Below are positions 9,397 to 13,983 of a stretch of 27,032 nucleotides of DNA, in pieces. The stretch covers positions 1 through 27,032 of the IMG/VR virus record IMGVR_UViG_2695420624_000003. One strand, given 5' to 3'. The DNA comes from a virus (lineage: Duplodnaviria > Heunggongvirae > Uroviricota > Caudoviricetes). Position numbers and translations under genes: made by a program. Numbering within the stretch: the first letter of the stretch is position 1; every line of letters starts with the position of its first letter. The notes beneath the pieces were generated by a model that searched no databases, was not told where the DNA came from, and saw only the letters and a program-made list of their open reading frames with translations.

Positions 9397-10308
9397 TCAG
9401 TACTTAAATAAGAATTTGCTATTACTTTGAAATTGAGATGGTGTGGTTGCAATCGGACTAGATGTCGCAGCTATCTCTTCAAGTAACTCAGCTTTCCAGA
9501 CATGCCCTAGTTGCAAAGATTCACTATGCGACACTTTGTATTCTGCAGCACTAACGACTTGTTCTAAGAAAAGATCACTGTTTAGCATTTGCATACTTGC
9601 ATAAACGCCAAGGAAATGAATTTTCATTCCCATATCCATGATCATATTCCCTTCTTTTGTAAGATAACCACTGTGCGTGACATAGAATGCCGGAGAGCCT
9701 GACATTCCAGGGAAAGCAGAAATATCGACAACTATTAATTTCTTCCCATCGAAATCGATATCTGGCTCACTCGCTAAGCTTCCTGTTTTCCATATTGGAA
9801 GGTAGTGAGTCGTGTCATGATAACCATGAGGATATCCAATCATTACAACAGGAGATGAGGGGTTTATCTGGACATTAGGCAGTGTCGTTGTTTTTGAGAC
9901 TACTTTTACTCCTGTGTTTACAAACAACTCTTGAGGCAAAGGCATCAAGATAATGTCTGCCTCTTTATCTGTGGGGTGCTCCAACCACAGCGGTGAACCA
10001 TCTTTAAACAGAGGCATCGTATGTTTGAATAGTTTTCCGGTTTTATCTCTCAGCTGAATATCAATACTATCGCCTATAAATGGCTTTACACCCCTTTCGG
10101 ATGGGCTGATTCCAGTTATTACATGATAGTTAGTTGCAAGGAAAATGAAACCATTGCTATGTTGATAAAAGAACCCAGTACCTAACGACTTTGACTCTCC
10201 ATTAGACCTCAAAATTACTAAAGTAGTTACCAGAGATAGCGGCTGTACGTTTTGCATAAAATTCATCCAACATGAACTTCGATATAGGTTGTAAAAGCAT
10301 ACAATCAT
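9397..10308 (-). CDS. Trypsin-like serine protease (chymotrypsin fold), moron gene
   Basis: Catalytic-triad motifs in order: ATNYHV (His), ADIILMPL (Asp), GMSGSP (Ser). Low-GC. True start may be an internal Met (10266 or 10257). Confidence 0.65.
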   Translation of the reverse strand: MIVCFYNLYRSSCWMNFMQNVQPLSLVTTLVILRSNGESKSLGTGFFYQHSNGFIFLATNYHVITGISPSERGVKPFIGDSIDIQLRDKTGKLFKHTMPLFKDGSPLWLEHPTDKEADIILMPLPQELFVNTGVKVVSKTTTLPNVQINPSSPVVMIGYPHGYHDTTHYLPIWKTGSLASEPDIDFDGKKLIVVDISAFPGMSGSPAFYVTHSGYLTKEGNMIMDMGMKIHFLGVYASMQMLNSDLFLEQVVSAAEYKVSHSESLQLGHVWKAELLEEIAATSSPIATTPSQFQSNSKFLFKY

Positions 10309-10374
10309 TCCAGAAAATTCTTAACCAACTATTTCCGATATATGAATCGCCAATTCCGATCTAGCTATATAACC

Positions 10375-10647
10375 TCACTTTTCAGCAGAGTTTTTCTCCG
10401 AAAGCAGGTGCTCACTCTTTCTAATGTCTAACTTATCCCTATTACAAGACGCCAGCGCCGACAACAGGCTTACGTTCAAATCCAGGCTCCCACTCCATGT
10501 CAGCGGGTCGGGGATAGCTGGTTGCGGAGTTTCAGCGGTCAGATTCGCTAGTAGTGGTACCGCCGAAACTGGTACGTAAACTGTCCGCGTACCGGCGCAG
10601 CCGTTCAGCTGCACGAGCAGGAACAGGACGGGCAGCGCAATCATCAT
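10375..10647 (-). CDS. Rz1-like outer-membrane spanin lipoprotein
   Basis: Signal peptide with lipobox (MMIALPVLFLLVQLNGC) and Pro-rich mature part, in the +1 frame overlapping the 3' end of Rz. Confidence 0.45.
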   Translation of the reverse strand: MMIALPVLFLLVQLNGCAGTRTVYVPVSAVPLLANLTAETPQPAIPDPLTWSGSLDLNVSLLSALASCNRDKLDIRKSEHLLSEKNSAEK

Positions 10648-10924
10648 TCGCAAAAGCCATTTTGATATCAGCCTGGGTTCTCTGTGACTCCAGTGCGATC
10701 TGCTGTTTTGCATGCTGGTTAGCCTCCAGTACTGTATTGACGATTTGTAGTGATTGCAGGACGTTATTAGTAATGGCAGTTGCCGATTTGGCATTTTGTA
10801 CAGCCTCATCAGCACGTTTCTTTTCGTGCTGATATTTGCTGTAGTAGTGGTTGGTTGACCAGATGAAAGAACAGACGACAGTTAAAAGGAAAGCAGCGAT
10901 AATCAGCTTATAGCTCAACTTCAT
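10532..10924 (-). CDS. Rz-like inner-membrane spanin
   Basis: N-terminal transmembrane helix then a charged coiled-coil-like region; located directly after the endolysin. Confidence 0.7.
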   Translation of the reverse strand: MKLSYKLIIAAFLLTVVCSFIWSTNHYYSKYQHEKKRADEAVQNAKSATAITNNVLQSLQIVNTVLEANQHAKQQIALESQRTQADIKMAFANDDCAARPVPARAAERLRRYADSLRTSFGGTTTSESDR

Positions 10925-11384
10925 TTACCACCCCACCAGCCTCTTTAAACCTGGCAATCAGGTCACCGATTTTATGTTCATACTGACCATAACCAGCGCC
11001 CGGCAGTGAAGCCCAGATATTGCTGCAACGGTCGATTGCCTGACGGATATCACCGCGATCAATCATCGGTAAAGCGCCACGCTCTTTAATCTGCTGTAAT
11101 GCCACGGAGTCCTGGCTTCTGGGAGAGAAGTCTTTCAGCCCTAGCTGCTTGCGGTAGGCATCCCACCAACGGGAAAGAAGCTGGTAACGTCCGGCTGCTG
11201 TTGATTTGAGTTTCGGGTTTAGCGTGACAAGTTTGCGAGGATGATCGGAGTAATCAGTAAACAGTTCACCACCGACAATGACATCATAACCGTGGTTACG
11301 TGTCGGTTGTCGCCCGTTATCCGTTCCTTCTGACCATGCAACCATATCCAAGAAAGCTTTACGCTGGGAATTTAGTGCCTGCAT
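10908..11384 (-). CDS. Endolysin, lambda R-like lytic transglycosylase
   Basis: Near-identical over long stretches to lambda R as recalled from memory (NSQRKAFLDMVAWSEGTDNGRQPTRNHGYDVIVGGELFTDYSDHPRKLVTLNPKLKST...). Confidence 0.9.
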   Translation of the reverse strand: MQALNSQRKAFLDMVAWSEGTDNGRQPTRNHGYDVIVGGELFTDYSDHPRKLVTLNPKLKSTAAGRYQLLSRWWDAYRKQLGLKDFSPRSQDSVALQQIKERGALPMIDRGDIRQAIDRCSNIWASLPGAGYGQYEHKIGDLIARFKEAGGVVNEVEL

Positions 11385-11387
11385 AAA

Positions 11388-11714
11388 TTACTCCTTCGAG
11401 CTACCAAATTTGTTACCGATTACTCGCATTGCAGCCCCACGAATTGCATCGACACCAATCAGCCCAACACCGCCACCAATGGCAACAGAAAGAGATTTAG
11501 GCCATCCGACATACTCAAGAGCGGATGCAAAAGTCAGCGTCAGAGCACCACAGAGCAAAATCTCGAGCGTTTTTCGTTTCCAGCCACCACCACCGCCAAA
11601 ATAGGCAATGCGCAAGCCAGCCATAACGATCGACATAATCACTGCGCCCAGCGGTGTGTCTCCACGCCACCAGCTCTGGAACAACTCCAGCCAGGTATTT
11701 GGGTTATGAGGCAT
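11388..11714 (-). CDS. Holin (lambda S-like)
   Basis: 108-aa protein with hydrophobic helices and a charged C-terminus, immediately upstream of the endolysin. Confidence 0.75.
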   Translation of the reverse strand: MPHNPNTWLELFQSWWRGDTPLGAVIMSIVMAGLRIAYFGGGGGWKRKTLEILLCGALTLTFASALEYVGWPKSLSVAIGGGVGLIGVDAIRGAAMRVIGNKFGSSKE

Positions 11715-11856
11715 TTGTAGTTATCTCTCACCTCGCTGATACAGCAGGTGCAAATTGAGGGAACATCATGTACAGCAAATTAGAAGCGGAAACGTCAAAG
11801 AAGCCGAACCAATGGATAACTGCGGAATAGACCAGGACCAACGAATCCCCAGCCCC

Positions 11857-11888
11857 AGAAACGACAAAACCCGCTCGACGGCGGGTTT
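11857..11888 (-). terminator. Intrinsic terminator upstream of the holin (tR'-like)
   Basis: GC-rich 8-bp stem AAACCCGC/GCGGGTTT followed on the minus strand by a U-rich tract (UUUUGUCGUUUC). Confidence 0.5.
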
Positions 11889-11933
11889 AAGCTGTGTGGC
11901 GAAGTAACCACTCTTAACACGATACAATAATTT

Positions 11934-11962
11934 TTGCGTACGCGTTAGCGTTTTTGTAAGAT
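11934..11962 (+). promoter_or_regulatory. Candidate sigma70 promoter for the 12000..13614 cassette
   Basis: TTGCGT, 17-bp spacer, TAAGAT, about 40 bp upstream of the cassette ATG. Read by eye only. Confidence 0.3.
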
Positions 11963-11999
11963 TAACAAATAAATCGAAAAATCATAATCGGATGATTTC

Positions 12000-13022
12000 A
12001 TGGCAAAATTAAATGCTAGCGAAAGACTCGTTACTCATCATAGTCTGACCATTGACACAAAGTTTAGAACCAAGGCAACACAAGAGGTAAAAGCCCAGTG
12101 TATATGTCCTGTTCCGGAAATGTACATGCTTGCCCCATTGATTGTTAAACAAAAGGGACTCGTTCATTCATATGATTCTGGGAATATTGTAGTTACTCTC
12201 CAAGATGTACAACTTTATCCTTTACTTCCAGATAACTCACCCACGCATATTGTCCTTCTTATTAATAGTGTTGATAAAAATGGAAGTACTACCGTTGTAA
12301 AAAATATAAATACTAATGAACGCGTTGAAATCCAACCAAAATATGAACAAGGTGAAGGCTATGAAGTTTCTACCTATGTTGTCATATCATTAAATGGAAA
12401 TAAAAGAACCTATGATATGATTTGTACATCTACCCCAGGTGTATCTACGGCCCGGTTAAATAGTTTTTTAGACAAAATTCTCTTTGAAGTGGCGAAAGAC
12501 AATGAAGACTTATTTACCGCAAAACATCCAACTAACGTTATTTCTGCAACATCAAAAAAAGAAGTAAAAATACGATACAAACCAATATTTGAATTTACAG
12601 GAATGTTAGACAAGGAGCTTTTTAATAAAATAAGCCAAAAAGGATTATCAGATGTCATATTAGTCAAGGATCAATTCGGAACAATTAATGCTCCTGATGT
12701 TAACTCACCTTACATTCCGACTGAAAGTACATTAAAATTACTTCCAAATCATGGTGACAATGTTATTGGATGGATTAAAAATGTAGCATCTCATTTCAAT
12801 AAAAAAATGAATGGTGGTTATGATAAATTAAAGGTTAAATTCCAAGATCCTGAAACAAATAAACCAAGGCAGGTTGATTTCAAAACCTCAAACATCAATC
12901 TTAATAATTTAGAAAAAACATTTATTAAGAAAAGCATTATCGATAACTTTAATTCGCGCCTGAAGGATTCATATGTTAAAATTGAGCTAGAGTTTGTTGT
13001 GAAAATGATAGATTTGATGTGA
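12000..13022 (+). CDS. Hypothetical soluble protein (340 aa), first gene of a low-GC cargo cassette
   Basis: Long low-GC ORF on the strand opposite to the phage late genes, Lys/Asn-rich, no recognised motif. Confidence 0.7.
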   Translation: MAKLNASERLVTHHSLTIDTKFRTKATQEVKAQCICPVPEMYMLAPLIVKQKGLVHSYDSGNIVVTLQDVQLYPLLPDNSPTHIVLLINSVDKNGSTTVVKNINTNERVEIQPKYEQGEGYEVSTYVVISLNGNKRTYDMICTSTPGVSTARLNSFLDKILFEVAKDNEDLFTAKHPTNVISATSKKEVKIRYKPIFEFTGMLDKELFNKISQKGLSDVILVKDQFGTINAPDVNSPYIPTESTLKLLPNHGDNVIGWIKNVASHFNKKMNGGYDKLKVKFQDPETNKPRQVDFKTSNINLNNLEKTFIKKSIIDNFNSRLKDSYVKIELEFVVKMIDLM

Positions 13023-13029
13023 GGTTATT

Positions 13030-13614
13030 ATGCCAATACTTTCAGTTTTCTCTCATCTAGGCAAGCCGTTTGGATATCTTTTTATTAAAGGTATTAGCGG
13101 CAAAGCTGCATATGATTGGGTAGCACCAATTCTACTTACTTCTATCACAGCAGTACTTTTCATTCTATTAAAAATCCCTGTCAAAGATTTATTTGATGAC
13201 AATGGTTTCATTAAATCAATCGTTTCATTTATCTCTAACCTACCAGGGTTTTATATTGCCGCTCTGGCCGCCATAGCAACTTTCAATAGAGCTGAGATTG
13301 ATTTACCATTGATTAGCAATGAAAGAAATGCCTCTATTGAAATAAAAGTAACAAAAGAAAATGGAAAAGTAGTAAATTCAGAGGAGGTTCTGACCAGACG
13401 ATTATTTCTTTGCATGCTATTCTCTTTTTTAACAGCATTAAGCATTGTTATAATAATACTTAATGCTATATTTTCACCATTAATCAATGTCTATCAAAAC
13501 AGTTTTGTTTTAATGGTTTATACTGTTGTATTTACTTTCCTCGTTTGGCAACTCTTAGTATCAACTTTCTTTGGATTATATTATCTCGGAAACAGAATTC
13601 ATATGAATTATTAA
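13030..13614 (+). CDS. Integral membrane protein (194 aa, about 4 TM helices), second gene of the cargo cassette
   Basis: Starts 7 nt after the upstream stop with a GAGG ribosome-binding site; four long hydrophobic segments. Confidence 0.7.
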   Translation: MPILSVFSHLGKPFGYLFIKGISGKAAYDWVAPILLTSITAVLFILLKIPVKDLFDDNGFIKSIVSFISNLPGFYIAALAAIATFNRAEIDLPLISNERNASIEIKVTKENGKVVNSEEVLTRRLFLCMLFSFLTALSIVIIILNAIFSPLINVYQNSFVLMVYTVVFTFLVWQLLVSTFFGLYYLGNRIHMNY

Positions 13615-13617
13615 GCC

Positions 13618-13983
13618 CTACAGGGGCTTAATAATCAACAAAATACCTTCAATCACTCCTATTGCTGCTTGAAGTTGTTTTCTGATTGACCCGTCAGAGC
13701 ATTTCCGTTTCTTTGCTATTGAACGGAGTGAAATACCGATAACAAAGTGAGCAATGATCAGTTCATATTCTTCTGGCTTATATTTCCGCATTCGCGCAAC
13801 ACAGCTGTCAATCATGATTCCTTCATCATCATCGCATTGTTGGCGTGTTTTCTTTCCATGAGGTAGTAAACCTTTAAACCCTGCAGCAACAGGCTGCCAG
13901 TCCACACCACTGTTATCTGCTGCAGCCCATGCTCCCCAGCGGTCCAATACTTCATACATATCACGCATCAACCTTCTCCACAA
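13618..13983 (-). CDS. Late-gene antiterminator Q (short QuuD-like type)
   Basis: Resembles the short Q antiterminators (VLDRWGAWAA ... AAGFKGLL ... KCSDGSIRKQLQAAIGVIEG) as recalled from memory. Start may be an internal Met. Confidence 0.75.
   Translation of the reverse strand: MWRRLMRDMYEVLDRWGAWAAADNSGVDWQPVAAGFKGLLPHGKKTRQQCDDDEGIMIDSCVARMRKYKPEEYELIIAHFVIGISLRSIAKKRKCSDGSIRKQLQAAIGVIEGILLIIKPL

Follow-up and report, generated by a model that had tools for sequence, protein, structure and literature searches.

A stand-alone trypsin-fold protease gene as optional cargo beside the lysis cassette of an SfII-like prophage

What purpose does a stand-alone serine protease serve between the lysis and packaging genes of a temperate phage? 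The question is raised by IMG/VR virus record IMGVR_UViG_2695420624_000003, a stretch of 27,032 nucleotides (positions 1 to 27,032 of the record) that is referred to here as the window. The gene lies on the minus strand at 9397-10308. A preliminary description of the window had reported a complete catalytic triad, a low guanine-cytosine (GC) content and no obvious signal peptide, and had proposed a moron that could act in abortive infection or against host defences. The open reading frame (ORF) is real, and the three catalytic motifs are located within it as FLATNYHVITG, KEADIILMPLP and FPGMSGSPAF. As judged from the sequence, the gene is intact, was acquired horizontally and encodes a serine protease of one domain that is competent for catalysis. 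Its assignment to a catalogued, uncharacterised family is unsurprising to a specialist. The role tentatively favoured here, at somewhat less than an even chance, is site-specific proteolysis in phage-phage or phage-host conflict.

A chance ORF can be dismissed because of the database matches and the number of homologues. The protein matches Pfam Trypsin_2 (PF13365; E 3.7e-8, 34.7 bits against a cut-off of 27.6 bits), the whole profile of PHROG 7688 (E 8.9e-112, positions 1-288 of 288) and PADLOC PDC-S45 (E 5.8e-42, 141.6 bits), with residues 10-282 aligned to profile positions 6-282 of 293. A word-indexed search returned 285 homologues at E<=1e-3, and an exhaustive search of clusters formed at 50% identity returned 6960 clusters at E<=1e-3, with 312 of them at E<=1e-30. 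The search of a defence database that the preliminary description had called for thus gave a full-length hit. With PDC-S45 the protein shares this match to the hidden Markov model, the single-gene architecture and the occurrence in prophages, and no difference was seen at the sequence level; PDC-S45 has also been reported in Sinorhizobium prophages. PHROG 7688 is a family without functional annotation, and this match adds membership only.

Residues are numbered here in the 286-amino acid form, counted from Met18 of the maximal ORF. The ATG of Met18 (10255-10257) is most likely the true start, as RefSeq annotates 286 amino acids, the PHROG 7688 alignment begins at residue 18, the enterobacterial homologues begin at an equivalent MQNV... 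and the 17-residue extension ahead of it is not conserved. The features of the gene are as follows.

9397-10308, minus strand: maximal protease ORF, 303 codons from the first ATG
9397-10257, minus strand: protease coding sequence, 286 amino acids plus stop; S1/Trypsin_2 fold, PDC-S45, PHROG 7688
10258-10308, minus strand: in-frame 17-codon upstream extension, probably untranslated; unconserved in homologues and not signal-peptide-like
10123-10125, minus strand: codon of catalytic His45 (TNYHV)
9955-9957, minus strand: codon of catalytic Asp101 (EADIIL)
9700-9702, minus strand: codon of catalytic Ser186 (GMSGSP)
9718-9720, minus strand: codon of Ser180, six residues before Ser186
9400-9456, minus strand: C-terminal extension, residues 268-286, predicted to be disordered; enterobacterial clade only

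His45, Asp101 and Ser186 do not vary among 25 diverse homologues, the most distant at 39% identity, or among 36 enterobacterial homologues, and the protein would be expected to have proteolytic activity. From the spacing of the motifs, Ser180 probably corresponds to residue 189 of chymotrypsin, which lies at the bottom of the S1 pocket, and might then fit a P1 preference for large hydrophobic or aromatic residues. Strong conservation extends to the non-catalytic motifs LPIWKTGSxASEP and ESLQLGHVWK.

An AlphaFold2 model built from 25 homologues (predicted local distance difference test score, pLDDT, 78; predicted template modelling score, pTM, 0.79) contains two beta-barrels, a long and poorly predicted beta-hairpin (~211-255), a short helix (256-264) and a disordered tail. 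Foldseek matched this model to DegQ, Spl and 3C proteases in the PDB at E about 1e-6. The closest solved folds are the periplasmic DegS/HtrA proteases, the protease domain having a structure of the S1C type. At the sequence level, phmmer against PDB chains gave no meaningful similarity, with only chance-level matches to Prp8, and the sole matches in a viral structure library were generic proteases of the 3C-like and sobemovirus-like kinds.

Trypsin_2 is the sole Pfam match of the 286-amino acid protein, no PDZ domain was found and the C-terminus consists of the helix followed by the disordered tail. According to the model, the protein is a DegS/HtrA-like protease domain without PDZ domains. 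It shares its protease-domain fold with DegS/HtrA (MEROPS S1C) but lacks their signal peptide, membrane anchor and PDZ domain, and it differs further in the hairpin at ~211-255, in the disordered, aromatic-ended tail of the enterobacterial clade and in being phage-borne and not a housekeeping enzyme. Membership of the HtrA/DegS family was rejected because the export signal and the PDZ domain are both missing. The 150 best relatives among 1.84 billion representatives are mostly 250-330 amino acids in length and carry no added domain, the shorter ones having the appearance of fragments; since the longest is 365 amino acids, there is no room in these relatives for a sensor or a PDZ domain.

Simple sequence measures agree that a signal peptide is absent: a basic n-region, cysteines and a hydrophobic segment long enough to span a membrane are all lacking, the maximum Kyte-Doolittle mean over 19 residues being 1.22. 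The one hydrophobic run near the N-terminus, LSLVTTLVIL, corresponds to the first conserved beta-strand of the fold, and neither a signal peptide nor a lipobox was found in the 17-residue upstream extension. Signal peptides are likewise absent from all 37 of the enterobacterial clade members examined and from a large environmental clade, and the protease would be expected to act in the cytoplasm. Classical signal peptides do occur in an Acidobacteriota clade, for example MRLWLPWLVAGLLARPAQAQ, and in a second, Bacteroidota-like clade, for example MKKQLSKRIVTIFLVIFIICLLIITIGGIAMA. The preliminary description had held that a secretion signal combined with homology to periplasmic housekeeping proteases would speak against its proposal. 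This combination applies to distant relatives, but not to the window protein or the enterobacterial clade.

The low GC content that had been reported was also borne out. The gene has a GC content of 0.40, against 0.57 for the HNH endonuclease gene, 0.58 and 0.54 for the small (TerS) and large (TerL) terminase genes and 0.48-0.52 for Rz, R and S; at third codon positions (GC3) the value is 0.36, against 0.47-0.65 in the neighbours.

The presence of the gene at this location is optional. In phage SfV, only 26 nucleotides separate the Rz1 stop from the HNH start and there is no gene between them, whereas the same junction holds 291 nucleotides without an annotated gene in SfIV (locus L072, 410-700) and an unrelated hypothetical gene of 168 amino acids with a strong terminator (z -3.5) in vB_EcoM-689R6 (locus L073, 680-1186). 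With other content in 689R6 and SfIV, the junction is a general slot for cargo in this phage group. The gene itself is rare. Out of 5426 complete E. coli genomes, 3 carry the window allele, 3 carry a paralogue of 50% identity (P0037) and 1096 carry the adjacent HNH backbone gene; among 50,697 phage records, a homologue of any kind occurs in two only, both of them SfII.

From 9000 to 12000, the window is 100% identical to Shigella phage SfII, apart from 1249 bp that are extra in SfII. These belong to an insertion sequence (IS) within the protease gene.

10095-10096: insertion point of IS911 (1249 bp) in the SfII copy, between codons 54 and 55; gene otherwise 99.9-100% identical

The insertion separates His45 from Asp101 and Ser186, and the copies in S. 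flexneri genomes are likewise split into pieces of 82 and 226 amino acids. SfII has been induced, forms plaques and has had its host range measured (PMC3772137). Since a viable phage carries the split copy, the protease is unneeded for lytic growth, lysis and packaging. An intact allele identical to that of the window resides in a complete prophage of E. coli TW10828, together with that prophage's own HK97-type prohead protease. The notion that intact alleles are excluded from isolated phages was dropped, as the gene is very rare in prophages too (~6 of 1100 sharing the HNH backbone).

A role as the prohead (head-maturation) protease was ruled out, as intact relatives possess a separate Peptidase_S78 between the portal and capsid genes. 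The HK97-type enzyme is also a phage serine protease, but the window gene differs from it in fold and in position, being dispensable and outside the head module.

With the junction empty or otherwise filled in SfV, SfIV and 689R6, the gene rare, and the copy in viable SfII split, the proposal of a moron or accessory cargo stands. The lambdoid morons, as defined for HK97 and HK022, are alike in their presence or absence among collinear genomes, their deviant GC content, their site between modules and the hairpin with a T-run that follows the gene. They differ in that no promoter belonging to the window gene was detected and that its hairpin is weak (z = -0.05). A further difference separates it from lambda bor, a moron at the Rz-terminase junction: the window gene is co-oriented with the late operon and bor is not.

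This orientation leads to the question of when the gene is expressed. The gene was placed correctly, between Rz/Rz1 and the HNH, TerS and TerL genes, and the gene coordinates agree.

13618-13983, minus strand: antiterminator Q-like gene
11388-11714, minus strand: holin S, upstream flank of the protease ORF
10908-11384, minus strand: endolysin R, upstream flank
10375-10924, minus strand: Rz/Rz1 spanins, upstream flank; the lysis cassette as a whole covers 10375-11714
10258-10374, minus strand: intergenic region from the Rz1 stop to the protease start, 117 nucleotides, with a weak GGAUGA Shine-Dalgarno-like sequence before the ATG
9358-9383, minus strand: weak hairpin and then a T-run (TTTTTAT), ATAAACCGCCTGTTGGAGGTTTTTAT, 14 nucleotides past the protease stop; z = -0.05
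8971-9321, minus strand: HNH endonuclease, downstream flank
8351-8854, minus strand: P27-type TerS
6621-8354, minus strand: TerL

Upstream of holin S, at 11867-11888 on the minus strand, AAACCCGCCGTCGAGCGGGTTT has the form of a strong terminator-like hairpin, with a T-rich tail after it. This is where the late operon would be expected to have its Q-antiterminated tR', and a terminator is annotated at the corresponding site in SfV.

In all seven enterobacterial prophage contexts, the protease gene directly follows the last lysis gene, is co-oriented with the late operon and precedes the small terminase gene, with the HNH gene in between in backbones of the SfII/SfV type. The flanking holins, endolysins and terminases are non-homologous between these contexts, as listed here in that order.

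Window, TW10828 and P0037 prophages: Phage_holin_3_1; lambda-R-like endolysin; P27 TerS and TerL
Serratia: Phage_holin_3_3; Phage_lysozyme; Terminase_2 and Terminase_3
Enterobacter hormaechei: holin_8 and holin_3_7; GH19; terminase of the lambda Nu1/GpA type
Citrobacter: holin_8 and holin_3_7; GH108; Terminase_2 and Terminase_6
Rahnella: holin_2_1; Phage_lysozyme; terminase of the lambda type
Enterobacter remnant: no holin recognised by Pfam; Phage_lysozyme; terminase absent, followed by tail-fibre remnants

Two other arrangements were seen. A metagenomic homologue at the end of a P2-like prophage is convergent to Rz-like and endolysin genes, and because of this orientation it cannot be transcribed within that late operon. 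The Pectobacterium copy forms an isolated islet beside an IS200-type transposase.

A simple consensus scan of 10258-10374 found no sigma-70-like promoter and no terminator. Scans upstream of the gene in three homologous prophage loci gave no sigma-70-type promoter either, and totals in the window and in these loci were never above those of shuffled controls, although a scan of this kind could miss a weak or a non-sigma-70 promoter. The hairpins equivalent to that at 9358-9383, after the P0037 paralogue (locus L003) and after the 689R6 cargo gene, are good, strong terminators. Within an operon that is antiterminated by Q, a terminator at this point would be sensible only if non-antiterminated transcription starts upstream, which is the classical argument for morons and may apply here.

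The main rival to a conflict function arises from these observations. It is that the Q-dependent late promoter transcribes the gene along with S, R and Rz/Rz1, and that the enzyme reaches the envelope only through holin lesions, like a canonical endolysin, or by release at lysis. Its targets would be outer-membrane or receptor proteins on cell debris, matrix proteins or proteins of an animal host, and the benefit would be better release or spread of the progeny, or a factor released by lysis in the manner of Stx. The constant position and co-orientation after the last lysis gene in seven of seven contexts, despite the unrelated genes on either side, is what would be expected, as is the failure to detect either a promoter of the gene's own or a terminator between Rz1 and the gene. 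The periplasmic nature of the nearest solved folds and the secretion of the sister clades point in the same direction. However, the gene is unneeded for lysis or plaques, given the disrupted copy in SfII and its absence from SfV and SfIV, and it is distinguished from the closely spaced lysis genes by its foreign GC content and by the gap of 117 nucleotides. In Nitrospira, Desulfobulbus, Geothermobacter and Pectobacterium, homologues without a signal peptide are found at a distance from any holin, and one homologue is convergent to the lysis genes. The lysis-terminase junction is moreover the right end of the packaged genome, a site that would be expected to tolerate insertions whatever their function. 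A lysis-coupled protease is considered rather unlikely, even as the foremost of the alternatives.

The C-terminus of the protein bears on the same alternative. The prophage-borne enterobacterial clade, and this clade only, carries an extension of 20-35 residues that is variable in sequence but ends in a conserved [SG]F-x-x-[KR]-[FY]-COOH. The terminal motif reads SKFLFKY in the window (9400-9420, minus strand) and SSFETKF, GISFKF, SVIFKF or SFQMRF in other members, with three members running on beyond PKF with E[NK]TRW. The alternating aromatic residues and the terminal Phe or Tyr of this tail recall the C-termini of outer-membrane proteins, the YxF motif of which activates DegS. This resemblance is counted in favour of a lysis-coupled enzyme and, as an analogy, offers a lead and not a result. 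The conserved tail may regulate or target the protease. Docking of the tail onto the protease was unsupported: residues 267/268-286 had a pLDDT of 27-39 in each of two AlphaFold2 runs, whether the alignment supplied was diverse or specific to the clade.

In bacteria other than enterobacteria, the neighbours of the gene vary by lineage. They include a TIR protein, an HNH protein and a caspase-TPR protein in Nitrospira; a ParE/Phd toxin-antitoxin pair, DUF2726 and a methyltransferase in Bacteroidota; a HEPN RiboL-PSP protein in Geothermobacter; DUF3644, IS elements and a methyltransferase in Desulfobulbus; and an AriA/PtuA-like ATPase in Chitinophagaceae. Further loci contain integrases or plain housekeeping genes, and more distant relatives, at 25-30% identity, occur on plasmids as stand-alone genes. 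When the neighbours of 44 loci were clustered all-against-all in search of a conserved partner, a conserved neighbourhood was obtained in Acidobacteriota only. Two kinds of candidate partner were rejected. The downstream proteins of three loci (DUF3644, HEPN RiboL-PSP and a 211-amino acid protein) are mutually unrelated, as are the small upstream ORFs in three prophages. The gene can thus be regarded as stand-alone, as first described, having no conserved small partner and no added domain in its 150 best relatives.

In the Acidobacteriota clade (35-39% identity), the gene lies immediately upstream of an extracytoplasmic function (ECF) sigma factor gene (PF07638), after which comes a Ser/Thr kinase gene, at no fewer than 21 loci. 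The overlap with the sigma factor gene was 4 nucleotides in the two loci checked (L041 and L050). The cluster is located beside, and divergent from, a resistance-nodulation-division (RND) efflux system (OEP, AcrB, HlyD). Examples of the operon are given by the following entry.

Loci L031-L060 (metagenome-assembled genomes), e.g. L041 9875-12725: Acidobacteriota operon

By analogy, this operon looks like an envelope signalling module in the style of DegS. It brings in the possibility of a regulatory, site-1-type protease, which would cleave a specific regulator as DegS cleaves RseA and so reprogramme host or prophage expression, in lysogenic conversion or in the control of induction. The sigma factor and kinase genes beside the Acidobacteriota homologues are consistent with such a role, and the strong conservation of LPIWKTGSxASEP and ESLQLGHVWK suggests a specific partner. 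Set against this, the Acidobacteriota proteins have signal peptides and form a separate clade, and there is no sigma factor, anti-sigma factor or kinase beside the enterobacterial or other mobile members. Rapid horizontal movement among unrelated hosts would also argue against dependence on a host-specific regulator. A regulatory role for the window protein is distinctly unlikely.

A one-gene conflict function is favoured because of the rarity and mobility of the gene, its variable slot, the PDC-M53A/B genes nearby and the defence-type neighbours in other phyla. The integrases, IS elements and plasmids at other loci support it further, as does the homologue that is convergent to the lysis genes of a P2-like prophage. 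As a one-gene system, the protease would cleave one or a few specific proteins of the competing phage or of the host upon infection by a competitor. The competitor would thereby be kept out or its infection aborted, a gain for both the lysogen and its prophage, and the protease would in that case be anti-phage. The earlier suggestion as to function therefore survives in part: the gene is signal-less, stand-alone cargo, and defence is made plausible by the PDC-S45 match and by the mobile and defence-type neighbourhoods, but nothing specific was found for anti-defence.

Protease-based immunity has been described in other forms. The trypsin-MBL (metallo-beta-lactamase) modules of Hachiman, Avs2 and Argonaute systems and the activators of gasdermin and CARD systems contain PF13365 trypsin-fold proteases, whose site-specific cleavage frees or destroys a target. 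These proteases are coupled to a fused or partnered sensor (HamAB, STAND NTPase) and to an adjacent effector (MBL nuclease, gasdermin). Neither was seen at the loci of the homologues, and no MBL, gasdermin, STAND or HamAB gene adjoins any homologue examined.

A number of points weigh against a conflict function. The PDC families (Payne et al. 2024) comprise 145 candidates, with at least one member embedded in BREX, DISARM or type I restriction-modification systems, a form of guilt by embedding, and they are stated to be unvalidated candidates by the PADLOC work and by others. A literature search found no experimental work on PDC-S45 or on a stand-alone S1 peptidase defence gene. The co-orientation after the lysis genes in all seven enterobacterial contexts fits late lytic expression at least as well, while expression in the lysogen would be expected of a defence gene and neither the window nor the three homologous loci yielded a sigma-70-type promoter. 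The protein has no sensor domain by which infection might be recognised. Some close relatives are secreted, as their signal peptides indicate, and the Acidobacteriota branch has the look of housekeeping envelope signalling. Guilt by association is itself weakened, because one member with a signal peptide sits in the "defence-like" Bacteroidota island.

A more specific form of the conflict function can be put forward, although it is quite unlikely. In this proposal, a single DegS-like polypeptide without a sensor would be the complete immune or exclusion device of temperate phages, latent in the cytoplasm and held or targeted by its aromatic tail, which resembles that of outer-membrane proteins, until it is unleashed by a phage trigger or by permeabilisation of the membrane by holin, whereupon it would cleave a specific target.

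Proteolysis could also be directed at host immunity, with the phage protease destroying an immune protein of the host. The gene is a phage-borne accessory in a variable slot and its product has no export signal; the proteolysis of an immune protein is conceivable. A late-operon position at the far end of the genome would, however, be wrong for a function needed early in infection. Homologues are in many cases found on chromosomes, within islands that contain defence genes, and not in phages, and only 2 of the 50,697 phage records, both of SfII, contain a homologue of any kind. Counter-defence is a highly improbable explanation.

Lastly, the gene may be a passenger without a current function in this prophage, whether as a selfish or as a decaying insert. 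The window prophage is degraded, with a truncated portal gene and missing head and tail genes, and the protease gene is rare and disrupted by an IS element in SfII and S. flexneri. Against this, the reading frame is intact and an identical allele is present in the complete TW10828 prophage. The catalytic and many other residues, as well as the C-terminal motif, are invariant across a clade of 47-100% identity, which indicates purifying selection and counts against a passenger. This explanation is very unlikely.

As a whole, the window represents an SfII-like temperate prophage in degraded form, in which lambdoid early genes are combined with a packaging module of the HK97 type. The head genes and most of the tail genes are missing; they are present in the intact relative, the E. 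coli TW10828 prophage. The remaining landmarks are listed below.

5939-6427, minus strand: truncated portal gene, 162 amino acids, covering only positions 2-97 of the 321-position Pfam profile
24411-25574, plus strand: ORF in the integrase position (387 amino acids; assigned by position), abutting tRNA-Thr(CGT)
25779-27032: ORF where proA lies in TW10828

The integration site is the tRNA-Thr(CGT) gene beside proA, the tRNA lying at 25589-25664 on the minus strand, and the region 24411-25664 marks the thrW-proA attachment site used by phages of the SfII/SfV type. At the other end, the truncated portal gene is directly followed by tail-fibre assembly genes, a gp53-like fibre tip and a Pin-type invertase (3278-3868). 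Past the invertase, two large ORFs lie in DNA of low GC content (0.35-0.39), at 1647-2945 on the minus strand and 415-1536 on the plus strand. One encodes 432 amino acids without a Pfam or PADLOC match and the other 373 amino acids with a sub-threshold match to the DUF1079 repeat only. Both ORFs may be further cargo. No complete E. coli genome in the collection matches more than 58% of the length of the left 6.6 kb of the window.

A second low-GC insertion (0.32; GC3 0.24-0.25) is found across the lysis cassette from the protease gene, in the interval from the Q antiterminator gene to holin S. It is a two-gene cassette on the opposite strand (12000-13614, plus strand) and occupies the slot that holds stx in Stx phages. 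Its genes encode proteins of 340 amino acids (PADLOC PDC-M53A, E 2.1e-32; PHROG 9879) and 194 amino acids (PDC-M53B, E 2.8e-54), which by these matches form a second defence candidate in the same prophage. They correspond to SfII_50 and SfII_49, listed as unique hypothetical proteins in the description of SfII (PMC3772137). In the E. coli prophages with the P0037 paralogue (L003 4025-6395), the same slot has a different opposite-strand pair, consisting of a 406-amino acid protein without a Pfam match and a 376-amino acid protein of the NA37 (nucleoid-associated) family. As these prophages are otherwise similar, the difference shows that cargo is exchanged in both slots flanking the lysis cassette.

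What the finding means depends on the function of the protease. If it is merely released at lysis, or is a neutral passenger, the finding is an ordinary one. If the family protects against phages, it would be among the simplest protease-based immune genes known, at ~285 residues with no sensor and no partner, and the matter would then arise of how infection is recognised, and which targets are cut, by a DegS-like protease with nothing added to it. Were the sensor-less device to prove true, the placement after the lysis cassette would be functional, coupled to the lysis clock, and would go beyond a tolerated insertion site. What the locus offers is a conserved C-terminal motif, a striking conservation of position across unrelated prophages and a natural knock-out in SfII, whose IS911-split copy can be set beside the intact alleles of lysogens such as E. 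coli TW10828 as a ready-made isogenic test system. The family is divided between clades that are secreted, one of them tied to genes for an ECF sigma factor and a kinase, and clades that are mobile and signal-less, and so provides a useful case of a housekeeping-type envelope protease fold recruited as mobile cargo.

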